A DNA stretch of 32,000 bases from Xylanibacter ruminicola 23 (GTDB taxonomy: Bacteria > Bacteroidota > Bacteroidia > Bacteroidales > Bacteroidaceae): the NCBI RefSeq assembly GCF_000025925.1, contig NC_014033.1, forward strand, positions 600,001 through 632,000, written 5' to 3'. Below, in pieces: positions 5,272-32,000 of the stretch. Position 1 is the stretch's first letter. The number at the start of each line of letters is the position of its first letter. The position numbers and the translations under genes are program-made. Under the pieces are notes generated by a model. That model was not told the origin of the DNA. It searched no databases and saw only the letters and a program-made list of their open reading frames with translations.

Positions 5272-5424
5272 GTGCCGCTCGGCTTTGCCGCTTGCCTAAG
5301 CAAGAACTTTTTCCTATCAATATACGTCTTACAGATAGAAAAAGAATATATCTTTTAAATTGCATTTTATAAATCATCTGTGCCAACTGCTATATTATTG
5401 CCTAACTTTTATATAAACTTGTTT

Positions 5425-7926
5425 TTATAACTCTATCACACGGAAAGTGTAAGGGGGTAGCGTGAGGGCGTTGGGGCCTGCTACTCCTTGCTTCATCTCA
5501 AGCGTCTGGTCGGTGGGCTGACCGCTGAATTCCTCGGTCTTGCTGTCGGCTGGGATAGTGAGGCCGTTGGCTTTGATGGTGAGCTCTACGGGCAGGGCGT
5601 TTACCAACTTGAGATAGCGACGGCCGGTGGCACTGTGGCGAACCAGACTGACGCCTACGCGATGTTTAAGTTCGGGGGCAATCTGGATGTCGGTGCTCAC
5701 GTACTTGTCGCCACCATATACCGAGAACATGCGCTGAACATGGTAGGCAGGGGTGGGGCGGACTTCGGTGTTAGAGAAGTAGATCATGTCGGGATCCCAG
5801 TTGTGGTGCTTATCCTTGGCCAGCATCGGGGCGTAGCTGGTCATCTCTACCACGTCGCCATTGCGCTCAACATCGGTGAGATAGAGGGCTTCGGCCAGTG
5901 CGGTCTCGATATTGGGACGCTTGACATTGGTTGAGGCTGCATATTCGCCAAGATAAACCTTAGGCATGGTGCGATCGTAACCGTCGTAATAGTTGCGATG
6001 GTGCATGAACCAACCGGTTGACTCGTAGTAGTGCTCATCAACCATATACTGCAGCTCGGGATGGCGCTTGGTGAAGTCCCATCCTTCGACGTAATCGGCA
6101 CTTGGGGCGTGGAAAGGTCCTACGGTGCCACAAATCTTAATCTCGGGATATTTCTGACGGATGGCCTTGCAGATCATCTCGTAGCGCTCTTCGAACACGG
6201 TGCCGATGATGTCCTCGTTGCCTATACCTATATATTTAAGGTTGAATGGGGCGGGGTGACCGGCATCAGCGCGAAGCTTGGCCCACTTGGAGGTGGCGGG
6301 ATCGCCATTGGCCCACTCAATCAGGTCGAGCAGCTCCTGGATGTAAGCTGGCATCTGATCCATAGGGATGCCGCACTGCTGACCGCCTATACCCTGGGCG
6401 TTGGCGGCTGAGTTCTGGCATGGAACGCCTGCTGCAAGCACTGGGAGTGGCTCGGCACCGATGTCTTCGCAGAACTGGAAATACTCGAAGAATCCCAGTC
6501 CGCGTGTCTGATGATAGCCCCAGATATTGAAGTCGGGTTTGCGGTCCTGAAGTGGACCTACGGTGTGGTTCCAATGGTAGATATTGTCGAGGCCCTGACC
6601 ATGGCTCATGCAACCGCCTGGGAAACGGACGAACTTGGGCTTTAGGTCGGCGATGACCTGAGCTAAGTCGCGACGCAGACCGTTAGGACGGTTCATAAAT
6701 GTTTCTTGTGGAAAGAGCGAAATCATATCGAGTCCCACACGGACGGACTTCTGCGGAATGATGGCCAGATGGGCCTTGGTGCAGCTCTTCTTGGTGCTGA
6801 GCACGCAGGTGTACTGTTGCCAATCGGTGCCCTGGGTTTTGAGTTTGCTGCTGGCAAGTATGGTGCCATCGGTGCCTATTAGCTGAATCGTGAAGTTCTG
6901 CTTCTGACCGTCGGCCAGAACATACATCGAGAAGTTGTACTTATGGCCGGCCTCTACGGCGATGCCATCCCAACCCTCGTTCCACAGTGTGTCGGCAGCA
7001 ATCACTGCATAGTGGGGATTGTTGCTGCTGAGTGGGTGCTGGGTGGAAATATCGATAGGACTGGCTGAGTGCCAGGCGGTGGTGGCGTTCCACTCGCGAC
7101 GATCTTTTGCGTTGTATTCGAAGTCGCGGTTCTGAATCAGTTCGGCATACAGACCGCCATCGGCAGCATAGCTGATGTCTTCGAAGAAGATACCTATCAG
7201 TTTGTCGCTGATGGTCTTCTCGCTGTTGCTCACGTGAAGTGTGGCTGTCACAGGCTGATGGGGCTGCAGGGAATTCTTGGCATCGTCGTGCATGCGCTCA
7301 CTGCTGAGACGTGCGTCGGCCTGCAACTGTTGGAAGTGACTAGTGATGGTGCTGAGCTCCTGCGCTGTGATGTCGAAGGTGTTGCCCTCGTGCAACTTGC
7401 CTGCTATGGTGGCGGTGTCGCGCGTCCAGGCAGCCTGATCGATCAGGCTCTTCTGGTCTTTGCTGAATTGACGGAAGTTGCCTGATGCAGATACCCAGCG
7501 CTTGTCGCCGGTTTTCGTCTGATAATAGATGTCGAAGGTGCCATTGTCATTGGCAAAGACTACCGGCTTGAGGCACTGTGGCGTTGACATCACAGGATAG
7601 TCTTGTGGGCGCCAGGTTACCAAGTTGCGGCTATAGGCTGCGGCAAAGAGTGGTGAACTGTCGTTGACCTGAAACACCAGGCGCCAGGTGCCATCGGCAG
7701 CGCGGGCCACTGAGGGGTGGTACATACGCTTCTCGGCTCCCCATGTGCCATAGTCGGACGAGCACAGCTGACCCAGCTCCTGCCAACCGTTGTGGGTGAA
7801 TTGTGCTACATGCAAGCCGGCGTGCTCACCTGGGCTATAGACAAACACGCGCTTGGTGGTCTGAGCGCAAACGCTGATAGACGCTGTGGCGAAAATGCCT
7901 AAGAGGTAAAATCTTGATTTCTTCAT
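5425..7926 (-). CDS. GH51 alpha-L-arabinofuranosidase, copy 1, secreted, with an extra N-terminal domain of about 230 aa
   Basis: ADGGLYAELIQNRDFE, the acid/base motif IGIGNED and the nucleophile motif YLGEYA are GH51 signatures. The start is set at MKKSRFYLLGIFATASISVCAQ (signal peptide), not the upstream in-frame ATG at 7959. Confidence 0.9.
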   Translation of the reverse strand: MKKSRFYLLGIFATASISVCAQTTKRVFVYSPGEHAGLHVAQFTHNGWQELGQLCSSDYGTWGAEKRMYHPSVARAADGTWRLVFQVNDSSPLFAAAYSRNLVTWRPQDYPVMSTPQCLKPVVFANDNGTFDIYYQTKTGDKRWVSASGNFRQFSKDQKSLIDQAAWTRDTATIAGKLHEGNTFDITAQELSTITSHFQQLQADARLSSERMHDDAKNSLQPHQPVTATLHVSNSEKTISDKLIGIFFEDISYAADGGLYAELIQNRDFEYNAKDRREWNATTAWHSASPIDISTQHPLSSNNPHYAVIAADTLWNEGWDGIAVEAGHKYNFSMYVLADGQKQNFTIQLIGTDGTILASSKLKTQGTDWQQYTCVLSTKKSCTKAHLAIIPQKSVRVGLDMISLFPQETFMNRPNGLRRDLAQVIADLKPKFVRFPGGCMSHGQGLDNIYHWNHTVGPLQDRKPDFNIWGYHQTRGLGFFEYFQFCEDIGAEPLPVLAAGVPCQNSAANAQGIGGQQCGIPMDQMPAYIQELLDLIEWANGDPATSKWAKLRADAGHPAPFNLKYIGIGNEDIIGTVFEERYEMICKAIRQKYPEIKICGTVGPFHAPSADYVEGWDFTKRHPELQYMVDEHYYESTGWFMHHRNYYDGYDRTMPKVYLGEYAASTNVKRPNIETALAEALYLTDVERNGDVVEMTSYAPMLAKDKHHNWDPDMIYFSNTEVRPTPAYHVQRMFSVYGGDKYVSTDIQIAPELKHRVGVSLVRHSATGRRYLKLVNALPVELTIKANGLTIPADSKTEEFSGQPTDQTLEMKQGVAGPNALTLPPYTFRVIEL

Positions 7927-7956
7927 TATTATTGTGTCATTAATTCTTTGAGGATG

Positions 7957-7964
7957 CAAAGGTA
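7957..7964 (-). promoter_or_regulatory. -7 box TACCTTTG (minus strand) for GH51 copy 1
   Basis: The reverse complement of caaaggta matches TAnnTTTG, about 30 nt upstream of ATG 7926. Confidence 0.45.
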
Positions 7965-8039
7965 ATGAATTATAGCGTAAAAATGCAAGTGAAATTCAGA
8001 AAAATTTGCTTGGGAAGGAAATATCTTCAAAAACTTTTG

Positions 8040-8047
8040 TATATTTG
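8040..8047 (+). promoter_or_regulatory. -7 box TATATTTG, a copy of the promoter that drives the second GH51 gene at 22084-22091, here pointing into the 11.3-kb segment
   Basis: Matches TAnnTTTG and lies inside the duplicated block. The block ends 9 nt before the position where the start codon sits in copy 2. Confidence 0.4.
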
Positions 8048-8091
8048 CACCAGATATGATTATTACTATCTTTTTAAAACGTTACTATTTT

Positions 8092-8147
8092 GGGACATTT
8101 TTTGTTGCAAAACGTTTTTTCTTGCATAGTTCTTCTTTATTTCCGAT
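8092..8147 (+). repeat. Short intergenic repeat, copy a (GGGACaTTTTTTGTTGCAAAACGTTTTTTCTTGCATAGTTCTTCTTTATTTCCGAT)
   Basis: About 56 nt, similar to 8744-8799; its first 39 nt or so resemble 19372-19410. It starts exactly at the right end of the 2.7-kb repeat. Confidence 0.7.
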
Positions 8148-17553: not shown

Positions 17554-17871
17554 ATGTTTAAAGATGATATATACGCACAATCAAATTCATCAATTATCGC
17601 TGGACTTGGAAAAAGAGTGCGTGAATACAGAATGAAGGCGCAGTTGACTCAGGAAGAGTTAGCTGCAAAGGCTGGTATATCGGTGTTGACACTAAAGAAG
17701 TTTGAGAATGCTAAGACTGCAAATATAAACATGCAGTCCTTCCTTGCTATTCTGAGGGCTTTACAGCAGTTGGAGTGTGTCGGGAATATCCTTCCGGAGC
17801 TTCCTGTTCCTCCATCGGTACTAAGACAATATCAAGAGAAAACTCCAAAGAGGATAAGGCATGGAAAATAA
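17554..17871 (+). CDS. hipB: XRE-family HTH protein, HipB-like antitoxin
   Basis: LGKRVREYRMKAQLTQEELAAKAGISVLTLKKFENAK is a canonical Cro/C1 HTH. An 11-nt overlap couples it to the downstream hipA. Confidence 0.8.
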   Translation: MFKDDIYAQSNSSIIAGLGKRVREYRMKAQLTQEELAAKAGISVLTLKKFENAKTANINMQSFLAILRALQQLECVGNILPELPVPPSVLRQYQEKTPKRIRHGK

Positions 17872-19348
17872 TATTGTAAAGGTTAGTCTTTGGGGGCAGA
17901 CCATAGGCGAGATATATTGGGATGAAAAGAGGAAACAGTCATGTTTTTCCTTTTCGAGTGATTTTGTTGCAAAGGGCCTTGACATAGCACCTTTGACGGC
18001 ATCCATTCATAATCCGCTATTAGCTCAGGGTGAAGTGTATCTCGGAAACAAGAAAGACTTGTACAAAGGACTGCCAGAGTTTCTCGCAGACTCTCTGCCG
18101 GATAATTGGGGCGAGAGGGTGATGAAACATTGGGCAGACCACTATGGGGGAAAGGTACGCCTTACTCCAGTTGATGCTCTGTCGCTTATGGGAAAACGTT
18201 CTATGGGAGCCTTGGAGTTTGAACCGTATATGGAAAAGTGGGAGAAAACCACGGATATCCTGCTGCCTGAACTATATAAGTTGGCCAGTATAATAATGGA
18301 GGAAAGTAAGTTCCCTGAAGGGGAAGATCCGCTGATACACCTCCAGAACCTTTTTAGTGTGGGAACCTCTGCGGGTGGCAAACGTCCGAAAGCAATCATT
18401 GCAATCAATCAGAAAACAGGTGAAATTAAGTCTGGACAGGGGCTTCTTTCCGATGAATACAAATACTATATTCTGAAGTTTAATGAGCGCAAGCAGTTCC
18501 CTACCACGCTGCTTGAGAAGACTTATTATGACATGGCTGTTGCGGCTGGCATCCCTATGATGCCATCGTCGCTCATGGATATTAATGGAATTCCTAATTT
18601 CTTGACAGAGCGTTTCGATAGGGTGGATGGAACTAAAGTCTATACTCAGACATTGGCAGCATTGGCGCCGGAAGCTGATTCTTATGAAGATCTTTTCAGC
18701 GTGGCAAGGAAATTAGCAGTACCTTATGACGAACTTGTAAAGCTGTACCGACAGACAGTGTTCAACTTCCTTGGTGATAACCTTGACGACCATAATAAGA
18801 ACTTCTCGTTTGTTATGAAAAAGAATGGAGATTGGCATATATCCCCAGCATACGACTTATGCTTTACATACGATCTGACAGGTATGGGCTTTGCCAACCG
18901 CCATGAATTATCTGTGTGTGGTAAGGACAAAGATATTACGAAAGATGATCTCCTGAATTTCGGAAAGGCAAACGACATACGGGCTGCCGAATCCGTCATC
19001 AGGGAAATATCTGACGTCTTGATGAGATTTAAGGAGTTTGCCCTGAAAAACGGAGTGAGCGAGGTCTATGCAGAGGTTATCCAGAAGAAACTCTGTCAGA
19101 ACTTAGATGTCAAGTCTGAGAAAGATGGGGAGCAGAGGGTTGACGATGATTCAGAACAGTCTGGCATTTTCGACAGTGTTGTAATTCGGAAGAACAAGGA
19201 GAAATATACTATACACGCCAGCAAAAACGGAGTCAGACTTCGTGAGAAGAGACTTTCGCAAGAGGAGTATATGGCATATTCTTTTGGACTTGTATCAAAG
19301 GAAAAACTTGCACTAAAGTATTTCCGCGATGAAATAAATAATACATAA
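17861..19348 (+). CDS. hipA: HipA-family serine/threonine kinase toxin with a C-terminal extension of about 90 aa
   Basis: A HipA N-terminal coupling domain (VSLWGQTIGEIYWD...LPEFLADSLPDNWG), then SAGGKRPKA, ERFDR, the catalytic DDHNKNFSF and SPAYDL. Confidence 0.9.
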   Translation: MENNIVKVSLWGQTIGEIYWDEKRKQSCFSFSSDFVAKGLDIAPLTASIHNPLLAQGEVYLGNKKDLYKGLPEFLADSLPDNWGERVMKHWADHYGGKVRLTPVDALSLMGKRSMGALEFEPYMEKWEKTTDILLPELYKLASIIMEESKFPEGEDPLIHLQNLFSVGTSAGGKRPKAIIAINQKTGEIKSGQGLLSDEYKYYILKFNERKQFPTTLLEKTYYDMAVAAGIPMMPSSLMDINGIPNFLTERFDRVDGTKVYTQTLAALAPEADSYEDLFSVARKLAVPYDELVKLYRQTVFNFLGDNLDDHNKNFSFVMKKNGDWHISPAYDLCFTYDLTGMGFANRHELSVCGKDKDITKDDLLNFGKANDIRAAESVIREISDVLMRFKEFALKNGVSEVYAEVIQKKLCQNLDVKSEKDGEQRVDDDSEQSGIFDSVVIRKNKEKYTIHASKNGVRLREKRLSQEEYMAYSFGLVSKEKLALKYFRDEINNT

Positions 19349-19410: not shown

Positions 19411-19468
19411 GAGAAGAGCCATGAGCCTCTTGACTGAATTATTGCCTAACTTTTATATAAACTTGTTT

Positions 19469-21970
19469 TTATAACTCTATCACACGGAAAGTGTAAGGGG
19501 GTAGCGTGAGGACGTTGGGGCCTGCTACTCCTTGCTTCATCTCAAGCGTCTGGTCGGTGGGCTGACCGCTGAACTCCTCGGTCTTGCTGTCGGCTGGGAT
19601 AGTGAGGCCGTTGGCTTTGATGGTGAGCTCTACGGGCAGGGCGTTTACCAACTTGAGATAGCGACGGCCGGTGGCACTGTGGCGAACCAGACTGACGCCT
19701 ACGCGATGTTTAAGTTCGGGGGCAATCTGGATGTCGGTGCTCACGTACTTGTCGCCACCATATACCGAGAACATGCGCTGAACATGGTAGGCATGGGTGG
19801 GGCGGACTTCGGTGTTAGAGAAGTAGATCATGTCGGGATCCCAGTTGTGGTGCTTATCCTTGGCCAGCATCGGGGCGTAGCTGGTCATCTCTACCACGTC
19901 GCCATTGCGCTCAACATCGGTGAGATAGAGGGCTTCGGCCAGTGCGGTCTCGATATTGGGACGCTTGACATTGGTTGAGGCTGCATATTCGCCAAGATAA
20001 ACCTTAGGCATGGTGCGATCGTAACCGTCGTAATAGTTGCGATGGTGCATGAACCAACCGGTTGACTCGTAGTAGTGCTCATCAACCATATACTGCAGCT
20101 CGGGATGGCGCTTGGTGAAGTCCCATCCTTCGACGTAATCGGCACTTGGGGCGTGGAAAGGTCCTACGGTGCCACAAATCTTAATCTCGGGATATTTCTG
20201 ACGGATGGCCTTGCAGATCATCTCGTAGCGCTCTTCGAACACGGTGCCGATGATGTCCTCGTTGCCTATACCTATATATTTAAGGTTGAATGGGGCGGGG
20301 TGACCGGCATCAGCGCGAAGCTTGGCCCACTTGGAGGTGGCGGGATCGCCATTGGCCCACTCAATCAGGTCGAGCAGCTCCTGGATGTAAGCTGGCATCT
20401 GATCCATAGGGATGCCGCACTGCTGACCGCCTATACCCTGGGCGTTGGCGGCTGAGTTCTGGCATGGAACGCCTGCTGCAAGCACTGGGAGTGGCTCGGC
20501 ACCGATGTCCTCGCAGAACTGGAAATACTCGAAGAATCCCAGTCCGCGTGTCTGATGATAGCCCCAGATATTGAAGTCGGGTTTGCGGTCCTGAAGTGGA
20601 CCTACGGTGTGGTTCCAATGGTAGATATTGTCGAGGCCCTGACCATGGCTCATGCAACCGCCTGGGAAACGGACGAACTTGGGCTTTAGGTCGGCGATGA
20701 CCTGAGCTAAGTCGCGACGCAGACCGTTAGGACGGTTCATAAATGTTTCTTGTGGAAAGAGCGAAATCATATCGAGTCCCACACGGACGGACTTCTGCGG
20801 AATGATGGCCAGACGGGCCTTGGTGCAGCTCTTCTTGGTGCTGAGCACGCAGGTGTACTGTTGCCAATCGGTGCCCTGGGTTTTGAGTTTGCTGCTGGCA
20901 AGTATGGTGCCATCGGTGCCTATTAGCTGAATCGTGAAGTTCTGCTTCTGACCGTCGGCCAGAACATACATCGAGAAGTTGTACTTATGGCCGGCCTCTA
21001 CGGCGATGCCATCCCAACCCTCGTTCCACAGTGTGTCGGCAACAATCACAGCATAGTGGGGATTGTTGCTGCTGAGTGGGTGCTGGGTGGAAATATCGAT
21101 AGGACTGGCTGAGTGCCAGGCGGTGGTGGCGTTCCACTCGCGACGATCTTTTGCGTTGTATTCGAAGTCGCGGTTCTGAATCAGTTCGGCATACAGACCG
21201 CCATCGGCAGCATAGCTGATGTCTTCGAAGAAGATACCTATCAGTTTGTCGCTGATGGTCTTCTCGCTGTTGCTCACGTGAAGTGTGGCTGTCACAGGCT
21301 GATGGGGCAGCAGGGGATTCTTGGTATCGTCGTGCATGCGCTCACTGCTGAGACGTGCGTCGGTCTGCAACTGTTGGAAGTGACTAGTGATGGTGCTGAG
21401 CTCCTGCGCTGTGATGTCGAAGGTGTTGCCCTCGTGCAACTTGCCTGCTATGGTGGCGGTGTCGCGCGTCCAGGCAGCCTGATCGATCAGGCTCTTCTGG
21501 TCTTTGCTGAATTGACGGAAGTTGCCCGATGCAGATACCCAGCGCTTGTCACCGGTCTTCGTCTGATAATAGATGTCGAAGGTGCCATTGTCATTGGCAA
21601 AGACTACCGGCTTGAGGCACTGTTGCGTTGACATCACAGGATAGTCTTGTGGGCGCCAGGTTACCAAGTTGCGGCTATAGGCTGCGGCAAAGAGTGGTGA
21701 ACTGTCGTTGACCTGAAACACCAGGCGCCAGGTGCCATCGGCAGCGCGGGCCACTGAGGGGTGGTACATGCGCTTCTCGGCTCCCCATGTGCCATAGTCG
21801 GACGAGCATAGCTGACCCATCTCCTGCCAACCGTTGGGGGTGAATTGTGCTACATGCAAGCCGGCGTGCTCACCTGGGCTATAGACAAACACGCGCTTGG
21901 TGGTCTGAGCGCAAACGCTGATAGACGCTGTGGCGAAAATGCCTAAGAGGTAAAATCTTGATTTCTTCAT
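19469..21970 (-). CDS. GH51 alpha-L-arabinofuranosidase, copy 2
   Basis: It has the same motifs as copy 1 and differs from it at 11 residues. The start is at MKKSRFY. Confidence 0.9.
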   Translation of the reverse strand: MKKSRFYLLGIFATASISVCAQTTKRVFVYSPGEHAGLHVAQFTPNGWQEMGQLCSSDYGTWGAEKRMYHPSVARAADGTWRLVFQVNDSSPLFAAAYSRNLVTWRPQDYPVMSTQQCLKPVVFANDNGTFDIYYQTKTGDKRWVSASGNFRQFSKDQKSLIDQAAWTRDTATIAGKLHEGNTFDITAQELSTITSHFQQLQTDARLSSERMHDDTKNPLLPHQPVTATLHVSNSEKTISDKLIGIFFEDISYAADGGLYAELIQNRDFEYNAKDRREWNATTAWHSASPIDISTQHPLSSNNPHYAVIVADTLWNEGWDGIAVEAGHKYNFSMYVLADGQKQNFTIQLIGTDGTILASSKLKTQGTDWQQYTCVLSTKKSCTKARLAIIPQKSVRVGLDMISLFPQETFMNRPNGLRRDLAQVIADLKPKFVRFPGGCMSHGQGLDNIYHWNHTVGPLQDRKPDFNIWGYHQTRGLGFFEYFQFCEDIGAEPLPVLAAGVPCQNSAANAQGIGGQQCGIPMDQMPAYIQELLDLIEWANGDPATSKWAKLRADAGHPAPFNLKYIGIGNEDIIGTVFEERYEMICKAIRQKYPEIKICGTVGPFHAPSADYVEGWDFTKRHPELQYMVDEHYYESTGWFMHHRNYYDGYDRTMPKVYLGEYAASTNVKRPNIETALAEALYLTDVERNGDVVEMTSYAPMLAKDKHHNWDPDMIYFSNTEVRPTHAYHVQRMFSVYGGDKYVSTDIQIAPELKHRVGVSLVRHSATGRRYLKLVNALPVELTIKANGLTIPADSKTEEFSGQPTDQTLEMKQGVAGPNVLTLPPYTFRVIEL

Positions 21971-22000
21971 TATTATTGTGTCATTAATTCTTTGAGGATG

Positions 22001-22008
22001 CAAAGGTA
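22001..22008 (-). promoter_or_regulatory. -7 box TACCTTTG (minus strand) for GH51 copy 2
   Basis: Identical to 7957-7964. Confidence 0.45.
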
Positions 22009-22083
22009 ATGAATTATAGCGTAAAAATGCAAGTGAAATTCAGAAAAAGTTGCTTGGGAAGGAAATATCTTCAAAAACTTTTG

Positions 22084-22091
22084 TATATTTG
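22084..22091 (+). promoter_or_regulatory. -7 box TATATTTG for the second GH51 gene
   Basis: Matches TAnnTTTG, 54 nt upstream of ATG 22145. Confidence 0.45.
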
Positions 22092-22144
22092 CACCCGATA
22101 TGATTATTACTATCTTTTTAAAACGTTACTATTTTGAAACTATT

Positions 22145-24706: not shown

Positions 24707-25013
24707 AACATCCTCTTCGCTTGAGAATGCGCGAGTCATCGGGCAAGGCATTATAGCTCAATGCCAGCTCAATGGTCTCAACCCTGAAAGTGAGGCTGAC
24801 CATAAGACTGCCTCCAAGGGCATTGTAGAGATGGCTGAGGAAACAGTTGGTTCTATCTCTCAATATATGTGGGACATTGCAGTACTTCGTATTGGTCAAC
24901 AGGCTTCAGAGTTGAACGTCTCGATGGGCGGTCAGTCGGTTGGTGGCAGTAACGGTAATGCTGATGAGTTGACCAACTGGGACGGAACTAAAAAGAAAGG
25001 ACTTGGGAGGTGA
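24681..25013 (+). pseudogene. Orphan C-terminal gene fragment, possibly from a mobilisation (relaxase-type) protein
   Basis: The frame is open from 24681 with no credible start. It ends ..NVSMGGQSVGGSNGNADELTNWDGTKKKGLGR*. I associate a Gly/Ser-rich stretch followed by a basic KKKG..R end with Bacteroidales Mob proteins, from memory and unverified. Confidence 0.3.
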
Positions 25014-25034: not shown

Positions 25035-25063
25035 AAGATGCGGTGTTAAGCCGCATCTTTTGC
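25035..25063 (+). terminator. Rho-independent terminator
   Basis: A 9-bp stem AAGATGCGG/CCGCATCTT with a 7-nt loop, followed by TTTG. Confidence 0.6.
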
Positions 25064-25124
25064 TTTACTGCCTTAATAAACTCTAAAAAATAAGCAAATA
25101 TGATTCTGATTGAAGATTTTTCAC

Positions 25125-25132
25125 TAACTTTA
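25125..25132 (+). promoter_or_regulatory. Near-consensus -7 box TAACTTTA at the head of the AT-rich operon
   Basis: A 7/8 match to TAnnTTTG, followed by CACC as at the other promoters. It lies 26 nt upstream of ATG 25158. Confidence 0.3.
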
Positions 25133-25157
25133 CACCCAAACTAAAAATTTGAAATGT

Positions 25158-25376
25158 ATGCAAGACGTAAATCGCCTGAAATTAGTGTTAGTGGAACAGA
25201 AGAAAACCAGTAAATGGCTTTCTGAGGAACTTGGAGTGAGTCCATCTACTGTTTCCAAGTGGTGTACCAATTCTTCCCAACCTGATATTGAAACCCTTGC
25301 AAGAATTTCAAGGCTTTTGGGTGTTGGTATAGAAGAATTGTTCAATAAGAAGTTTATTGAATCTGTTTCATTTTAA
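25158..25376 (+). CDS. XRE/Cro-C1-type HTH transcriptional regulator
   Basis: NRLKLVLVEQKKTSKWLSEELGVSPSTVSKWCTNSSQPDIETLARISRLLGVGIEELF is a canonical HTH_XRE. The track start at 25149 is TTG; the first ATG is at 25158. Confidence 0.8.
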   Translation: MQDVNRLKLVLVEQKKTSKWLSEELGVSPSTVSKWCTNSSQPDIETLARISRLLGVGIEELFNKKFIESVSF

Positions 25377-25390
25377 AAGATTGATATAAG

Positions 25391-25810
25391 ATGATAGATT
25401 TTAAGAATTCCAACTGGAAAAATATATTGCGAGATATTTATTCTCCAGAAATCGGTTCAATTTGGGTCGCTCCAAATGGGATTTGGAACAATTCTTTTGC
25501 CCATAACAAAGATAAGGATGACATTCATCCGTCAGTTATTGGGCGAGTTTATGATGAGAATAGAAAATGCTGGTTAATCCCAGGTACTTCAAAAGATTAT
25601 AATAAAGGTACCAGTGTATACAGGGTTAAATTAGACCCAAGCGACCCCGAATGTCCATATTCTCATTTTCTTATAAAATTGAGGATGACGTATAATTCTA
25701 AAGACCTAAACAATCTTCAAAGAGGTTGGAATGGTATAGAAACTCTTAGTGGCGAGCAAATAGAGGATTTAAAATTGCAAATCAAATTTAGTTTAGGAAT
25801 CAATGTTTAA
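25391..25810 (+). CDS. MazF/PemK-like toxin-fold protein (tentative)
   Basis: 139 aa, collinear by eye with E. coli MazF. IGSIWVAP pairs with GDLIWVDF, DIHPSVIG with GHRPAVVL, WLIPGTSK with LCVPCTTQ, and the C-terminal LSGEQIEDLKLQIKFSLGI with VAPEELQLIKAKINVLIG. Confidence 0.45.
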   Translation: MIDFKNSNWKNILRDIYSPEIGSIWVAPNGIWNNSFAHNKDKDDIHPSVIGRVYDENRKCWLIPGTSKDYNKGTSVYRVKLDPSDPECPYSHFLIKLRMTYNSKDLNNLQRGWNGIETLSGEQIEDLKLQIKFSLGINV

Positions 25811-26738
25811 GGAAGAATATATATTAGAATTGCTTTCCGGGCATTTGACGATGCAAGGCTATAATAGCATTATCAGCACCATCGGTAGCATGGCCAGACA
25901 TTTTAATTGGCCAAAAAACATTATCGTTTCCTCATCGTCAGATATGAATTGGAACAGCGACGATATTAAAGAGTTGGCACACCAGTTCTTCGAGTGGATT
26001 ATAGCGAAAAACAAATTAGCATATGTTGAAAAAATACCTTACGAATATCTTTCATTCTATTTTACTCAGATGCTAGTTTCATTTGTGTCTAATAGAATTA
26101 AAGAAGAACAGCAAAAAATAGGAATAAGCTTCCAGAAATGTCAGGAGCTTGTTTTTGAAATATGTTCAGAAGATTATACCATAGCGGAAGTGTCTGGGCA
26201 AAAATATGTAATAGTTAATCAAGAATCTATGGGAATTCAAATATCCGATTTATCGAATGCTGTAAAATATCTTCCAGCTTATGTTATAAAACCGACAACA
26301 AAACATTACAAGCCAATAATAAGGATGGCTGTACATGATGTTTTGTCAGATATTAATGGGATGGTTTCTGCTGTTTTACTTGTAAAAACCATATATGGGT
26401 TGTTGGATCAAAGTTCTTTGATAAAAGAACAAATTACGGCAACAGAGGATTTTGATGATATAGACAATGAAGACAAATACATTCCTTATGTATCATCGAT
26501 TCTAACAAATGTCTCCAAGATTGAGGCAAAGATGTATTTGGAATACATTTTTGAGGATGGTGGTAAAAAATCATTGGCCGAGATATCTTCTAAATACGGA
26601 TTACCCAAAAGTACCGCACATAAAAAAATAGAAGAATTTAAGCATAGAATTTTTTCTACTTATATGCCAGAGAATGAGTCCGATGGAGAAATGTTTTTAA
26701 AAAAACTTGCTCTCTCCTTGGACGAAATTGCAAATTAG
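25803..26738 (+). CDS. Divergent sigma-70/ECF-like protein (region 2-like N-terminus, region 4-like HTH C-terminus, long linker), tentative
   Basis: IKELAHQFFEWIIAKNKLAYVEKIPYEYLSFYFTQMLVSFVSNRIKEE resembles region 2 (..DLVQE.F..........F....F..WLY.IA.N...D..R). EAKMYLEYIFEDGGKKSLAEISSKYGLPKSTAHKKIEEFKHRI resembles region 4. An 8-nt overlap joins it to the upstream gene. Confidence 0.4.
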   Translation: MFKEEYILELLSGHLTMQGYNSIISTIGSMARHFNWPKNIIVSSSSDMNWNSDDIKELAHQFFEWIIAKNKLAYVEKIPYEYLSFYFTQMLVSFVSNRIKEEQQKIGISFQKCQELVFEICSEDYTIAEVSGQKYVIVNQESMGIQISDLSNAVKYLPAYVIKPTTKHYKPIIRMAVHDVLSDINGMVSAVLLVKTIYGLLDQSSLIKEQITATEDFDDIDNEDKYIPYVSSILTNVSKIEAKMYLEYIFEDGGKKSLAEISSKYGLPKSTAHKKIEEFKHRIFSTYMPENESDGEMFLKKLALSLDEIAN

Positions 26739-26770
26739 TGGTATTATATCAATGTAGCAGATTAGAAAAT

Positions 26771-27727
26771 ATGAATATTATAAACCAATTCTTAGAAGAC
26801 CCATTCTTGCAAGACAACGAGAATGAAGCATTCACAAACGATAGTCACAGATTGGCTGAAATTAATGAATCCTTTTCTCAGCATCCTTACAATAAGCCTA
26901 CTTTGCATTTATTACCATCGGTAAAGCAGAATCAAATATGGTCGATAAAAAAAGAATATCTTGATTATGAAGGAACCCTTCAAATTAATCAAGTACCGAT
27001 GTTGGTACTATCAACTACTGACCCAGAATATTTAGATGACGACAATGGGTTTATTAGAGTGTGCCCTATTACACCTTTTGTCGAAATGGCTGCAGATTCC
27101 GACCAAGTTTGCGATGATCTATCTATTTTAGGATTCCCATTTATGATAGAAACCTGGAACGAACAGCCAATATTGTTGGATTTGTTGGACAAATTTTGTG
27201 GTCATTATTATGCAGATATGACCGAGCAAAACGACTCATTAAATATTGATCAACGAAAATTCCGTGAATTAGAGATTTCAAGGGCTAGATTTTTAAATCA
27301 CTCAATTATTGCATATACAAATGAGTCAGACAGAGCGAAAGCATTTTCTTTCACGGTTGATTTGTGTTATTCTAATGCGGTCAAAACAAAACATATGCCT
27401 CGGGTAAACAATATGACTCCCGTGTTTATAAATCTTCGTGACAATGAAGAATATGCAACAGCAGCAAAACATGGTAGAGTATTATCTGAAAATGACTGTA
27501 TAGATTTCGAGAGCGAAGAAATGCCAATCAGAATAGAGGTTAGAAAAAAATCTCAAAAATTTGTATTAACAATAATACCAAAAGTGGAAATACAACTAAT
27601 CTCTTCTGACAAGAAAACAATAAATGGCACGTCAAATGATGAAAGAATAGTCTTTGATGGTCTTAAATCCGGACTATATAAAATTATATTATCCGATAAT
27701 AAAACAATCTCAATAAGAATTAGATAG
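26771..27727 (+). CDS. Hypothetical protein with an N-terminal MazF/PemK-like barrel motif (tentative)
   Basis: NQIWSIKKEY...VPMLVLSTTD...NGFIRVCPITPFVE follows the G.IW...RP.VVLS...V.V.PIT pattern. The C-terminal 180 aa or so are unassigned. The track start at 26738 is GTG; the first ATG is at 26771. Confidence 0.5.
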   Translation: MNIINQFLEDPFLQDNENEAFTNDSHRLAEINESFSQHPYNKPTLHLLPSVKQNQIWSIKKEYLDYEGTLQINQVPMLVLSTTDPEYLDDDNGFIRVCPITPFVEMAADSDQVCDDLSILGFPFMIETWNEQPILLDLLDKFCGHYYADMTEQNDSLNIDQRKFRELEISRARFLNHSIIAYTNESDRAKAFSFTVDLCYSNAVKTKHMPRVNNMTPVFINLRDNEEYATAAKHGRVLSENDCIDFESEEMPIRIEVRKKSQKFVLTIIPKVEIQLISSDKKTINGTSNDERIVFDGLKSGLYKIILSDNKTISIRIR

Positions 27728-27729
27728 CA

Positions 27730-30687
27730 ATGGCAGAAACTTATATTTCACAAATAAAGTCGACCGAATGGGTTGATTTAAGTAACGAGCACAAGAGAAT
27801 CAGAACCTCTCTTGAGCATGTTATTGAAAACACATGTTGTAGCAATGGATATAGTCAACCCATTATGTTACAAGGTGCTTTTGGTATAGGGAAAACAGCA
27901 ACATTAAATTACTTGTTCCATTATGCATGGGAAGTATTAAAAGTCCCGACTTTTCACTTGTTACTTTCTGATTTGGTGGATATAATAAAGGAAGTAGCGA
28001 AGCAACAAGGTGTTGACCAAATACAGAATGAAGATTTGGGACTGATAATCAAGAATACAATTGATAATCAAATCCAAAAACTTAAAAATGAAGATTGGTC
28101 TAATTTGACCAATGTGATGTTTCCTGAATTCACATCTATGGATATAGAGCATCCCTTAGTACTTGAGACTTACTTAAAAGATTTTGAAGCAGTCCAAATT
28201 GATGCAGATATAGATGAGAAGACTAAAGATTTGTTATCCAAAGGATTCACAAAAGAAGTGATAGAGGAGGCTTTAAACTCAAAGAATGTTCCTCTTTTGC
28301 TAATTGATGAGTTTGAATCCAAGTTTACTGATTTAAAAAAAATTGTCACTTCTTCAGGAGGTGGCATTCTTAGGGCATTATTCGACCAAGTTGTTTCAAA
28401 TAAGCCATTTTATCTTATTATTGGCAATGGACCAGGGTCTGCATATGAAATATCTAAAGAGCAAGGTACTGAAGAAAGTACAGATAATGAGGCTGCTGGT
28501 AATCGAAGACTTAAGCCAATGCAAATTCCATTCCCAACAGTACAGTTGTTACAACAGAAGTTCATGCATGGGGAATGCAAAGGATATGTGAATTTTATAT
28601 GGTGGGTATCTCGATGCAGGCCAGGCCAAATAAAACGTCTTCACGATACTATAGATTATAAGATCTATTCGAATTTGGATTTCTCAGTTTTTATTACTCA
28701 GTCAATTTTCTCAGAACCGATTGATGGTACCGGAAACGATGCGGTTAAATATCTTAAAACAGAATATTTTAATAGCATTGATAGTAATCTTTGGGCATCA
28801 ATGGGAACATGGCTATTGAATTTTGAACCTTGTAAAATAAATGTCACGAGAGATGTACGAGATGCATTGATGCGTTGTGCGGACGCATTCTTTGTGTCAG
28901 AAGAAACTGTAAAGTCTGAAAAAATTGCAGTTGGCTTACAGAAAGATTTAAGTAAGTATTTAAAGATTAAACAAGATGAGGGACTTTATCCTCGTGTTGA
29001 TTATCTCAAAAATCTTCACAAATATTTTAGCTATGTATTAAATGCCTGTTCTAATGCAGATGGCGAAATAGCATTTAAGACAGCAAGTAGAAGATACGAA
29101 GAGTCTTTTACCAAGGCTTTCGCAATACCTATGTTGGAAATCGTATATGATTTTATCAGCCAATATGAGGATGATAATGATGTTAGCTTTAAACAAACAA
29201 AAGATTTTATTCTTGACTGTATAAAATGGACTGAAAATGCAGTTGAGGAACGGGATCTTAATCTTAAATATGATGAAACGTATCGCTTGTTTGATTATAG
29301 CCGTTGCGATTTAAGGCCAAACGACGAGGTTATGATTCAATACTCTTTTGACTCTATTCGGCAAATGATCGAACAGCCCATTGGAGACCCACGGCTAAAA
29401 TATAAAGATGCTTCTTTGGATGTGTTGCTATCAAGTGTTTCTATGAATAATGCTGCAATTGCTTTTGCGGAGAAAAGCGATTGTAAGATATTGTTTATAC
29501 CCCAGTTGGAAGACAACGCAATTAAGGAATATCTAAAAAGGGTAAAATCATTCGTATCTGCCAGCATGTCTCATATGCTTCATCGTGGCGTTGAAACCAT
29601 GAGGATCGTTTTTCTTGGTAACCAAGATTATATAGGCGAATTTAAGGATGAGGTCTTGAAAACAGCAAATGGTGAGTTAACTCCTGCCGCCAAAATGTCA
29701 AAAATAGGTATAGATTCCTATGATGAATTCAATTTCAAATTTGGAGGTAAAACTTGCGACTTTATAGATTCTGTAGTAAAAATTATTATTATTGGTTCTT
29801 CAAAAGGAACATTATCCGATTCTCATCCGGATAATTGTTATGACATCGTCAAGGTAATGGAAACGATTAGCTTAAGTAGCTGGTCACCTAGAAAAGAAGA
29901 TCGAAGAACTATAGAGCATTATTCTAAGCTCGTAACAGAAGGAGAAAATAGTACAATAGATACTATATCAAGAAAAGCAATAGAACTTTATCATAATGCG
30001 TTAGGTAATTTACTGTGTCCCCTTGAAAGATATGACAGTAATCTTGACTATGAGCTTTCGACACTTTTCGACGAGAACACAATTACGTACGAGCCGCTTT
30101 CTCGCTTTGTATGTATGATGTATATCATAGAACATGCTGGTAAATGCCAAGCTGTGAGCCAGAATTTACTAGAATTGTTAAAGATGGTGGGAGTACGTTC
30201 AAATCCTCTATACTTTGAACCTAAGGTAGAAGAATCTTCAGTTCACGAATCTTATCATTTGGACCAGATTCACAATATTCTTAAGAATAGTGATAAAGTT
30301 AATTATTTATTAAAGCACATTGACACATCTACCGACTTATACGTGGCAATTAATAATTTTACATCGATGTTGGTTGATGAAAAAATCGCAGGCAATCTAA
30401 CACATCAATTTATTAAATTCTTACGAAATGACATTTCCAACCATTGGATTGGGGAATACAATTCTGTGATGTCGAAGTATTCTTCTTATGAAGGGGACAT
30501 GCTAGTACGTCTATCATATGCTATGTCAGTTTCTAAAATGGTGAGCTATGACAAGTTGCGGCAAGAAACCGTAAACAGAGTTGATACATCGATAAATCAC
30601 ATTCAGGAAAAACGTAGTGAAATTGTTGATACTATTGAAGGATTTCAAGACAGATTTATACCCTATTGGATCACGACATTTTGGTGA
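27730..30687 (+). CDS. Large P-loop NTPase (985 aa), STAND/ORC-like or BrxC/KAP-like, with a long helical C-terminal region
   Basis: Walker A GAFGIGKT (27874-27897) and Walker B PLLLIDEFE (28294-28311). The start codon is 2 nt after the upstream stop. There is an R-x5-H motif (LRNDISNH, 30424-30444) near the C-terminus. Confidence 0.75.
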   Translation: MAETYISQIKSTEWVDLSNEHKRIRTSLEHVIENTCCSNGYSQPIMLQGAFGIGKTATLNYLFHYAWEVLKVPTFHLLLSDLVDIIKEVAKQQGVDQIQNEDLGLIIKNTIDNQIQKLKNEDWSNLTNVMFPEFTSMDIEHPLVLETYLKDFEAVQIDADIDEKTKDLLSKGFTKEVIEEALNSKNVPLLLIDEFESKFTDLKKIVTSSGGGILRALFDQVVSNKPFYLIIGNGPGSAYEISKEQGTEESTDNEAAGNRRLKPMQIPFPTVQLLQQKFMHGECKGYVNFIWWVSRCRPGQIKRLHDTIDYKIYSNLDFSVFITQSIFSEPIDGTGNDAVKYLKTEYFNSIDSNLWASMGTWLLNFEPCKINVTRDVRDALMRCADAFFVSEETVKSEKIAVGLQKDLSKYLKIKQDEGLYPRVDYLKNLHKYFSYVLNACSNADGEIAFKTASRRYEESFTKAFAIPMLEIVYDFISQYEDDNDVSFKQTKDFILDCIKWTENAVEERDLNLKYDETYRLFDYSRCDLRPNDEVMIQYSFDSIRQMIEQPIGDPRLKYKDASLDVLLSSVSMNNAAIAFAEKSDCKILFIPQLEDNAIKEYLKRVKSFVSASMSHMLHRGVETMRIVFLGNQDYIGEFKDEVLKTANGELTPAAKMSKIGIDSYDEFNFKFGGKTCDFIDSVVKIIIIGSSKGTLSDSHPDNCYDIVKVMETISLSSWSPRKEDRRTIEHYSKLVTEGENSTIDTISRKAIELYHNALGNLLCPLERYDSNLDYELSTLFDENTITYEPLSRFVCMMYIIEHAGKCQAVSQNLLELLKMVGVRSNPLYFEPKVEESSVHESYHLDQIHNILKNSDKVNYLLKHIDTSTDLYVAINNFTSMLVDEKIAGNLTHQFIKFLRNDISNHWIGEYNSVMSKYSSYEGDMLVRLSYAMSVSKMVSYDKLRQETVNRVDTSINHIQEKRSEIVDTIEGFQDRFIPYWITTFW

Positions 30688-30730
30688 ACCATTAGCTGGT
30701 TATATTCAATTATTACAAAGAATAATATCA

Positions 30731-31300
30731 ATGTGTAAATTGATCAAGCAGGAATTGGAAGATGATTCAGCAAGCCTATCTACATATTTGATTTTGGAAA
30801 CTCTCTCATGGAGAGTTGAAAACATGAAAACCTCTATTAATACATTGTGTGGACAATTAAAGGATATTGCTGAACGCATCTCGCGTAAAAGAACTGAAAT
30901 TCGGACAAAATATCAAGTACCAATTGATGCGCTTCTCGAAAACCAATGGGTGTCTTTGTTGATAAATGACTGTGCCCCGATAGGTACTATTAAACCACCG
31001 TTTGATAACGATATTCTATGGAAAAAATATGCATGGAAGATTGGATCCTCAGACAAAATGAAATATATCATGTTTGAAATGAATCCCTCTCCCAAAGACA
31101 AGGAAGCATACTTTAAGTTTGAAGATATAGAATCCATTCGTAAAACAATAGAGTCTGTTTATACAGATTTGTGTAACTCGGCATATGTTCCAATACATAA
31201 TTTGTGCAAAGAGTCACTTAGTCGCGTACAGAATTACACAACTTTGCAAACCTATATAGAGAATCTCATAAATAATAAACAAGATGATACAGATAGATAA
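30731..31300 (+). CDS. Hypothetical protein (189 aa from the first ATG; 227 aa if GTG 30617 is used), or the frameshifted C-terminus of the NTPase
   Basis: The frame is open from 30596 and overlaps the end of the NTPase ORF by up to 71 nt. The first ATG is at 30731. No motif recognised. Confidence 0.5.
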   Translation: MCKLIKQELEDDSASLSTYLILETLSWRVENMKTSINTLCGQLKDIAERISRKRTEIRTKYQVPIDALLENQWVSLLINDCAPIGTIKPPFDNDILWKKYAWKIGSSDKMKYIMFEMNPSPKDKEAYFKFEDIESIRKTIESVYTDLCNSAYVPIHNLCKESLSRVQNYTTLQTYIENLINNKQDDTDR

Positions 31301-32000
31301 ATACTCAAAAAAATACAAGATTGCTTTAGAACGACGGAAAAGTCCTCAGTTCGTCTCAATGCTTGACTCCGAGCTAAAAAGTTCGGAATGGGTAGCACAG
31401 CTGGCAGCTTGCCAATTGTCATTAGACAACATTACTAAGGCTGCGGATTTTGAGACAAAAGAAAATGCGATCAAAAGCTTGTTCAATCAGTTGTATGAGA
31501 AGATTACTGCTCCTGGTTTGGATGCATTTATTGGATGGATTGGTAGTTTGACCACATCAAAAAACGGAGAAAACATAAAAGCATTTAAGAAATTCTTAAA
31601 GGACAACTATGACAGCTATGCTGATGATATAGAAAAAATATTATCTGCGAAGGAAGTAGTATCCAAGATTGACGAAAAAAGCATCTTCGGTAAACTAATT
31701 TCTAATTTTGGAAACAAAATCAAGAAAATAGTTACTGAATTCATTGATAACAACACGTTTGAAAATGAAATAGATGGATTGCTAAAACAATTGAAGAATG
31801 AATATGAGGGTGTCTCGAGTATATCTGAACTTAACTATACTTCAGTAAAGGACCTGTATACTGCCGAACAAAAACAAGATAACACCATTGACTTTTATAG
31901 TGACATATTTGAACAGGCAAGAAAGAAGTTTCAATCTATGGATGTTCAAAAAGGTGAAGACAAAAACACCAATTATTTCACTATAATACGCAATCGTGTT
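31284..32000 (+). CDS. Hypothetical protein, 5' partial (at least 239 codons, continues beyond the window)
   Basis: ATG 31284 overlaps the upstream gene by 17 nt, and the frame stays open to the last base of the window (MIQIDKYSKKYKIALERRKSPQF...). It is absent from the ORF track because it has no stop. Confidence 0.65.
   Translation, partial: MIQIDKYSKKYKIALERRKSPQFVSMLDSELKSSEWVAQLAACQLSLDNITKAADFETKENAIKSLFNQLYEKITAPGLDAFIGWIGSLTTSKNGENIKAFKKFLKDNYDSYADDIEKILSAKEVVSKIDEKSIFGKLISNFGNKIKKIVTEFIDNNTFENEIDGLLKQLKNEYEGVSSISELNYTSVKDLYTAEQKQDNTIDFYSDIFEQARKKFQSMDVQKGEDKNTNYFTIIRNRV

Follow-up and report, generated by a model that had tools for sequence, protein, structure and literature searches.

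What is the function of the AT-rich gene island that closes a 32,000-nucleotide stretch of the Xylanibacter ruminicola 23 chromosome (NC_014033.1, positions 600,001 to 632,000; hereafter the window, meaning this whole stretch)? The island holds six genes, one of them frameshifted, which cover the 5' two-thirds of an eight-gene operon whose genes are here called A to H. An earlier note, made from the letters alone, had proposed that the island encodes a candidate undescribed defence or abortive-infection system. Our analysis suggests that the operon is probably a conflict or defence system. The fuller statement, that the window carries most of a horizontally mobile Bacteroidales immune operon directed against phages or other mobile genetic elements, we hold at about even. 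The proposal of the earlier note survives in part: the gene set is uncatalogued, conserved and flanked by defence genes, but its anatomy had been misread, and its 3' part has a precedent among the MoxR-vWA conflict systems (PMC7159879).

How is the operon organised? All open reading frames (ORFs) of the island lie on the + strand with small gaps or overlaps, which bears out the tightly packed operon of the earlier note. Gene A occupies 25158-25376 (72 amino acids (aa) from an ATG; a TTG at 25149 would give 75 aa), gene B 25391-25810 (139 aa), gene C 25803-26738 (311 aa, overlapping B by 8 nt), gene D 26771-27727 (318 aa from an ATG) and gene E 27730-31300 (1189 aa). Gene F begins at 31284, overlaps E by 17 nt and is still open at position 32000, after the first 239 of its 514 codons. 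It is the protein of at least 239 aa that had been seen to run off the window; its full length is 514 aa in the loci L001 and L026, and the part in the window is 98.7% identical to the F of L001 (tblastn). The system is incomplete in the window, as had been stated, and continues through F, G and H in L026, a 3.58-Mb X. ruminicola contig of the same strain (window coordinate = L026 coordinate + 16770). The complete operon is XRE-HTH(A)-B139-C311-D318-E1189-F514-G578-H611, and the same chromosomal site in L026, L027 and L028 reads A72-B139-C311-D318-E1189-F514-G578-H611; the intact locus spans 8388-19623 of L026. B, C and D of X. ruminicola were deposited as "hypothetical protein", and all proteins of the operon are currently annotated so.

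Why, then, had seven genes been counted in the window, among them a nucleoside triphosphatase (NTPase) of 985 aa and a separate protein of 189-227 aa? In the window, gene E is split into two ORFs, 27730-30687 and 30617-31300. The homologue P0001 (1189 aa, 99% identical) equals the 985-aa ORF and the 227-aa ORF joined in frame, and E homologues are 1164-1190 aa long. At the break the window reads TTGAAGGATT / GTTGATACTATTGAAGGATTTC, while the four assemblies L001, L026, L027 and L028 read TTGAGGATT / GTTGATACTATTGAGGATTTC. The difference is a one-base insertion at 30638-30639, AA in place of A, which shifts the frame of E by +1. Because the four assemblies lack the extra A, E is one 1189-aa gene and the two ORFs are its pieces; a programmed frameshift is ruled out on the same ground. 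Thus the count of seven falls to six, and the separate small protein disappears. L026 shows zero other differences from the window across 15,230 nt, and the extra A is a sequencing error or a very recent mutation, the frameshift being probably artefactual.

Is the gene set a unit, and in what company does it occur? The order B-C-D-E-F-G-H is identical in every locus with enough contig, in a sample comprising the X. ruminicola loci, eight species-representative Bacteroides and Prevotella genomes, several metagenome contigs, a lineage in which E and F are fused, and one metagenome-assembled genome labelled Pseudobutyrivibrio. The operon genes overlap or abut in the loci examined, and the set is conserved as a unit, as the defence proposal supposed. 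Gene A is a frequent but not obligatory first gene: it lies directly 5' of B in the window, L010, L012, L013, L014-16 and L026-28, and is absent from that place in L002-L005, where a GmrSD_N gene stands instead. The distribution is patchy: among 185,579 species genomes, a pattern-limited scan turned up 8 loci. An exhaustive hidden Markov model search found only 162 relatives of E among 1.84 billion representative proteins; the locus is nevertheless common in metagenomes, with up to 2,512 member sequences per cluster, and the B family amounts to 61 clusters at 90% identity.

The flanks vary by lineage and are overwhelmingly defence or mobility genes, in at least six contexts, in agreement with the defence-island location expected by the earlier note. 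They include a MADS system upstream (PF26611 MAD7), an MmeI-like restriction-modification system together with GmrSD on a Mob_Pre mobilisable element, and a BrxC/DUF6079-type gene with an N6_N4 methyltransferase downstream (GCA_016648615.1). Other flanks hold AbiLi (AbiL), AbiEi/Eii (AbiE), DndF/DndG, PDC-S05, integrases and transposases. The proteins themselves are not equally conserved. Mean pairwise identity is 0.77 for B, 0.60 for H, 0.59 for G, 0.55 for C, 0.51 for D, 0.49 for E (0.37 over its last 400 aa) and 0.44 for F. This gradient is as expected of a split between effector and sensor.

What could the effector be? The earlier note had called B MazF/PemK-like and had seen a second MazF-like motif at the N-terminus of D; for both proteins the fold was recovered, with lower confidence for D, and a sequence-profile match was not. 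The AlphaFold2 model of B, built from 26 sequences, has a predicted local distance difference test score (pLDDT) of 89.5 and a predicted template modelling score (pTM) of 0.84. In a Foldseek search of the PDB with this model, ranks 1-44 are taken without exception by MazF-family toxins (MazF, YdcE, MoxT and relatives), and CptN follows at rank 45, with a best E of 6.5e-5 and TM of 0.54-0.70. On this model B adopts the MazF/PemK fold and is a candidate endoribonuclease effector. Residues H46-P47 and P64-G65-T66 of B are invariant in the family alignment. When the motifs were aligned by eye, H46-P47 fell at the catalytic Arg-Pro of MazF and P64-G65-T66 at its catalytic Thr; the catalytic Arg and Thr are R25 and T48 in B. 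subtilis MazF, R29 and T52 in E. coli MazF.

The model of D is less certain as a whole (pLDDT 70, pTM 0.50), with pLDDT about 80-90 in the domains and about 80 in the N-terminal one. Residues about 50-140 form a MazF/CcdB-like N-terminal domain and residues 159-192 a helical hairpin; residues 211-238 are a disordered linker, and residues 243-317 fold into a beta-sandwich at the C-terminus. Foldseek against the PDB places MazF at all of ranks 1-13 (E = 2.8e-3 to 9e-2, TM on target 0.55-0.65) and CcdB next. By sequence profile, DUF7494 and a NOMO1-like beta-sandwich are weak matches. The N-terminal domain of D thus appears MazF/CcdB-like, more weakly supported than the fold of B, and hhalign of B against D gave no significant alignment. 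There is no MazE/PemI-type antitoxin gene upstream of B, where an XRE helix-turn-helix (HTH) gene or GmrSD is found, depending on the locus. A type III toxin-antitoxin system, with RNA repeats 5' of a ToxN-like toxin, was also considered and rejected, as the island has no tandem repeats or Rfam matches.

Gene A encodes an XRE-family HTH protein, as first read (Pfam HTH_3 E = 2e-12, HTH_26 E = 2e-9). C had been described as sigma-70-like, and this description was not confirmed. The N-terminal part of the protein is helical and conserved, and an HTH lies towards the C-terminus, at residues about 245-285. HTH_IclR matches this HTH in the window protein (E = 0.003) and in 8 of 10 family members, while Sigma70_r4 matches one of the ten (E = 0.003). 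An hhalign comparison with the extracytoplasmic-function sigma factors RpoE, SigW and FecI aligned only the HTH of region 4.2, at residues 253-276 (P = 3e-4, probability 38%); the PDB profile search gave weak winged-HTH matches only. For sigma region 2 there was no Sigma70_r2 match at E <= 1 in the 10 members, no alignment of the N-terminal half by hhalign, and no sigma factor in the PDB search. The HTH of C is best taken as generic, its sigma-70 identity not being established, and C may be a regulator, an antitoxin or a protease substrate.

What would the sensor be? E carries Walker A (GAFGIGKT, residues 49-56) and Walker B (LLLIDEFE, 189-194) motifs, both conserved in the family alignment, and the GK[T/S] of the former and DE of the latter are invariant even across the wider superfamily. 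The C-terminal half is large, helical and fast-evolving. Of the first reading of this NTPase, the motifs, the helical C-terminus and the position of the Walker A Lys codon (27892-27894) were correct; the length of 985 aa was not. Window E itself has a single weak Pfam match (AAA_22, E = 0.025). We tentatively place E in the STAND/ORC-like AAA+ assemblage because the NTPase domains of its distant relatives match ATPase_2 (1e-10), AAA_22, AAA_16, nSTAND_NTPase5 and NACHT. An origin of E in a prophage or plasmid was rejected: E has no homologue in phages, and on plasmids there are only NTPase-domain matches of 24-25% identity, from haloarchaeal plasmids with uninformative context.

F is alpha-helical and coiled-coil-like, evolves fastest in the operon and has no PDB or Pfam family among those searched. 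In a divergent lineage E and F are encoded as a single protein, of 1701 aa in L018 (3096-8201), where residues 14-788 match E and 1231-1382 match F; P0254, P0256 and P0257 are further fusions. Because such fusions exist, we argue that E and F may act as one unit. The L018 operon also differs at its start, a 162-aa HEAT-like protein and a 56-aa protein replacing the XRE HTH.

Two genes, G and H, lie wholly beyond the window. G (578 aa) is, by its profile matches, a MoxR-type AAA+ ATPase: it matches AAA_5 (E = 1e-11) and AAA_lid_2, its sole PDB sequence match is MoxR 2r44 (E = 2.6e-10), its Walker A and B motifs are intact, and a C-terminal extension of about 230 aa follows. H (585-611 aa) ends in a vWA domain (VWA_2, E = 6e-8), with nothing C-terminal to it. 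The motifs of its metal-ion-dependent adhesion site (MIDAS), DTSGS...GGT...TDG, and an N-terminal HEIEH (HExxH) are invariant even in the most divergent copies, and the N-terminal region is a putative zinc peptidase. H matches DUF2201 weakly (E = 0.008), a PDB sequence-profile search recovers its vWA domain only, and both H and G have weak chelatase-type NCBIfam matches. A Q/S-rich linker of low complexity connects the N-terminal region of H with the vWA domain. In X. ruminicola (gene H, L026 17788-19623) it consists of (QQSG)n/(QQNG)n units repeated almost perfectly over a long stretch, and other lineages have another Q/S/G-rich stretch of variable length; such a repeat could vary by slippage.

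How might these parts work together? The gene content, the strict synteny, the folds of B and D, the motifs of E, G and H, the conservation gradient and the defence-island setting are observed; the functional steps, the identity of the effector and the substrate of the protease are what we infer here. E and F would form the sensor, E as a STAND/ORC-like NTPase with intact Walker motifs, and the C-terminal half of E and the whole of F as its fast-evolving part. G and H would make up an ATP-driven remodelling and protease module, in which H would use its MIDAS to dock on E-F, once activated, or on some partner. An inhibitory partner, for which C and the linker of D are candidates, would then be cleaved by H or unfolded by G, and the MazF-fold proteins would be released. 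B would be the likely catalytic subunit and D a probable non-catalytic MazF-like partner tethered to a beta-sandwich; the freed B, perhaps in a pair with the MazF-like domain of D, would cut RNA and abort the infection, with transcription set by A. This specific wiring, from sensing by E-F through remodelling by G and H to RNA cleavage by B, is tentative, and we think it more apt to be wrong in some step than right. A slightly better chance, though still a minority one, may be given to the broader idea of an unrecognised class of multi-component immune systems, widespread on the mobile islands of gut and rumen Bacteroidales, in which an E-F sensor acts through a MoxR motor and a zinc peptidase tethered to a vWA domain to set free MazF-fold RNases (B, D), that is, an abortive infection gated by a protease and chaperone.

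Several results weigh against this reading and should be noticed. Pfam PemK_toxin gives no match at E <= 1 for B of the window or for 26 family members, the Pfam PemK/MazF profile does not recognise the D family, and hhalign of B and D against three MazF sequences was not significant. In the motif alignment B has His where MazF has its catalytic Arg, and D has no constant residue there, which makes RNase activity uncertain. No peptidase profile or PDB match was found for the N-terminal region of H, HExxH being the one motif behind the peptidase call. MoxR-vWA pairs also have housekeeping maturation roles. In this assembly, moreover, E is frameshifted, and the locus may for that reason be inactive here.

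Has the operon been described before? The window proteins and the downstream genes of their relatives were compared with Pfam, PADLOC-DB v2.0.0 (2023), NCBIfam and PHROGs, and B-H also with PDB sequence profiles. These library scans found nothing beyond HTH, AAA_5 and VWA domains and placed B-F in no phage module and, in agreement with the earlier note, in no named system. B had no match in any of the five. In PADLOC-DB, which takes the search of defence catalogues up to 2023, matches were confined to the generic HTH of A and, weakly, the HTH region of C (CARF-HTH model, E = 9e-5), with none for B, D, E, F, G or H; the PDB profiles were informative only for G (MoxR) and H (vWA). A full-text literature search for MoxR with MazF, PemK, vWA or abortive infection returned no description of the gene set. 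The operon is not wholly without precedent, because its 3' part encodes a MoxR AAA+/vWA pair as in the MoxR-vWA-centric ternary conflict systems, including an iSTAND subtype, that were predicted computationally by Kaur, Burroughs, Iyer and Aravind (2020, eLife, PMC7159879). As in those systems, a MoxR-class ATPase and a MIDAS-bearing vWA protein are encoded beside an NTPase that is STAND-like, the vWA protein carries a putative peptidase domain and the sensor-like component evolves fast; the iSTAND class has also been reported in Bacteroidetes.

The differences from these published systems are several. E keeps Walker A and B and so is not an 'inactive' STAND, and it is none of the third components described there (VMAP, inactive STAND, FtsH or beta-propeller). 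The vWA domain of H is C-terminal and its HExxH N-terminal, whereas the published effectors lie C-terminal to the vWA domain; G has its long C-terminal extension. The operon adds four conserved genes (B, C, D and F), two of them with a MazF fold, and its hosts are unicellular gut and rumen Bacteroidales, while the published hosts are multicellular bacteria. It may be regarded as an uncatalogued candidate defence system, a variant on the MoxR-vWA conflict-system theme.

Other known systems share single parts with the operon. With MazF/PemK (Kid) and ToxN/CptN, B and the N-terminal domain of D share the MazF/CcdB SH3-like barrel and its C-terminal helix, and a Pro-x-Thr loop is retained in B where MazF has the catalytic Thr. 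Unlike MazF and PemK, however, the two proteins fall outside the sequence profile, lack an upstream MazE/PemI gene, differ at the Arg position and sit in a seven-gene ATPase/protease operon instead of a two-gene pair; unlike the type III systems of ToxN and CptN, the island has no antitoxin RNA repeats. E recalls BREX BrxC/PglY, AVAST and bacterial NLR-like proteins in its size of about 1200 aa, its N-terminal ORC/STAND-like P-loop, its long helical C-terminus and its occurrence in defence islands, and its operon once lies directly beside a BrxC/DUF6079 gene. Yet E has no BrxC-PglY_N, DUF499 or DUF6079 match and no fused effector domain, and the unit has no PglX methyltransferase, PglZ or BrxL. 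BREX was rejected, no BrxC/PglY, PglX or PglZ match from Pfam or PADLOC being present among A-H. McrBC/CoCoNuT was rejected on the MoxR match of G and on its partner H, which is a vWA protein and not McrC. MADS was rejected as an identity, the MADS and BrxC-like genes being neighbours and not components. Proteins of the COG3864/DUF2201 metallopeptidase and vWA-like type resemble H in having an N-terminal HExxH and a C-terminal vWA domain beside MoxR, but H has no DUF2201_N peptidase profile match. The COG3864/DUF2201, NorQ/NorD, CbbQ/CbbO and RavA/ViaA pairs serve in enzyme maturation or are uncharacterised, and we know of no case in which the COG3864/DUF2201 or NorQ/NorD-type pairs are linked to MazF-fold or STAND-like partners.

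Then which other explanations might account for these observations? One keeps the defence function and moves the effector: B and D would be non-catalytic adaptors or decoys, and H, driven by the MoxR ATPase G, would degrade a phage or host protein after sensing by E-F. The replaced Arg of B and its lack of conservation in D speak for this, as do the invariant HExxH and MIDAS of H and the published MoxR-vWA systems, in which effector domains, often peptidases, are carried on the vWA protein (PMC7159879; PMC12839542). But no peptidase family recognises H, and B is the most conserved protein of all and has kept a His and a Thr unchanged where MazF has its active site, because of which an enzyme acting on a conserved cellular target would fit B well; we consider the H-effector explanation unlikely, at perhaps a minor share of the probability. 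An elaborate toxin-antitoxin module that stabilises mobile elements, with MazF-like toxins, C as HTH antitoxin, control by chaperone and protease and no role in phage defence, seems less likely still. It could explain the carriage on Mob_Pre mobilisable elements, the adjoining integrases and transposases, the overlap of MazF-fold and HTH genes and the HipBA toxin-antitoxin pair nearby in the window. Addiction would not call for anything near a conserved seven-gene core of about 11 kb that includes two ATPases and the fast-evolving E and F, however; the neighbours are specifically defence systems in six contexts, and the X. ruminicola island is chromosomal, beside glycoside-hydrolase genes, with no integrase or transposase in the surroundings examined.

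Could the operon serve the cell itself? G and H resemble pairs of MoxR and a C-terminal-vWA adaptor such as NorQ/NorD, CbbQ/CbbO or RavA/ViaA, and their weak chelatase-type matches point the same way, so that they might assemble or activate a cellular complex made of B-F. The patchy distribution, the deviant composition and mobility of the locus, the MazF-fold proteins and the defence neighbours all speak against such a housekeeping role, which we regard as very improbable. There is a further question of whether the locus is alive in this strain. If the frameshift in E were real, the truncation at 985 aa could mark a pseudogenised remnant. However, L026 has an intact E and is identical at the other 15,229 aligned positions, E is intact in L001, L027 and L028 too, all other genes are intact, and a lone indel with no other decay is also what a sequencing error would leave. 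A dead locus is a real possibility, although we would rather expect a living one.

If the defence reading is validated, the operon would be a large and mechanistically unusual addition to the defence repertoire of Bacteroidales, the phage hosts that dominate gut and rumen and have so far been little explored. The MoxR-vWA conflict systems, which are only predictions in the literature consulted, would thereby become open to experiment for the first time. If the proposed release of B is true, a MazF-fold toxin would be under a new kind of control, by an ATPase/protease machine instead of a labile antitoxin.

Can parts of the operon move on their own? L021 (492-5643) carries a three-gene set made up of a 1067-aa protein distantly related to E (24% identity over some 750 aa), a helical protein of 505 aa and a third protein of 140 aa; next to the set lie genes for an N6_N4 methyltransferase and a UvrD-PDDEXK protein. 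The 140-aa protein shows by eye a PD-(D/E)xK-like D...ExE...K pattern and has no Pfam match, and the three genes may be a smaller sister system. The different small third gene of this remote E-like/F-like pair hints that E-F moves as a module and can exchange its partners or its effector; with an apparently swappable third gene, E-F could be a reusable sensor platform. In GCA_016648615.1 (11651-16501), a second HTH gene (80 aa) and a 140-aa gene lie right 3' of the operon, followed by the BrxC-PglY_N/DUF6079 protein (1222 aa) and the N6_N4 methyltransferase. If the 140-aa gene were a paralogue of B, an HTH with a MazF-fold protein would be a portable leader module. P0138 is an ordinary B gene in the usual B-C-D context.

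Where does the island begin, and what surrounds it? The shift to AT-rich sequence reported at about 25.07 kb was confirmed by the composition profile, in which the island (25066 to 32000) has a GC content of about 0.34 against about 0.52 upstream. GC is 0.51-0.55 at 22-25 kb, 0.41 in the interval 24.5-25.5 kb and 0.32-0.35 thereafter to 32 kb; in the sister assembly L026 the sequence stays AT-rich at least through the end of gene H (about 36393 in window coordinates). Sequence shared with the Prevotella sp. locus L013 begins at 25108, and the island copies of other genomes align from there. Just to the left, at 25038-25062 on the + strand, a G+C-rich hairpin followed by a T run, AAAGATGCGG-TGTTAA-GCCGCATCTTTTGCTTT, was seen by inspection; the scan did not list it. 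It resembles a terminator, which would close the upstream chromosomal unit with its GH51 arabinofuranosidase genes and bound the island on the left. The hairpin comes directly after a G+C-rich ORF of 60 aa (24831-25013) that separates the GH51 gene from the island; three other X. ruminicola assemblies annotate this ORF as a gene, and no family match is recorded for it. On the other side, 3' of H (L026 19627-20957; likewise in L027 and L028), come an ORF of 107 aa whose N-terminus resembles that of a lipoprotein and then a Schlafen/AlbA_2-type protein of 530 aa with SLFN_AlbA_2 and HATPase_c_4 domains. Because this domain pair is common in defence islands, the X. ruminicola island may hold more than one system.

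Upstream of the island, the window contains a direct repeat of 2,699 bp (5394-8092 and 19438-22136; 99.2% identity, 14,044 bp apart), each copy of which carries a gene for an 844-aa GH51 alpha-L-arabinofuranosidase. The two copies flank an 11.3-kb segment of AT-poorer and AT-richer patches with a Peptidase_C13 gene and HipBA, and may have arisen by segmental duplication or as the two ends of a composite insertion. HipBA (17554-19348) is a type II toxin-antitoxin pair in a stretch with GC about 0.42, 6 kb upstream of the island; its HipB-like HTH gene (105 aa) overlaps the gene for the HipA kinase toxin (495 aa; HipA_C E = 1e-36). At 12966-15655 there are four tandem paralogous genes of about 206-225 aa, within which DNA repeats of 94-98% identity pair 13652-14191 with 14325-14864 and 12966-13525 with 14964-15532.

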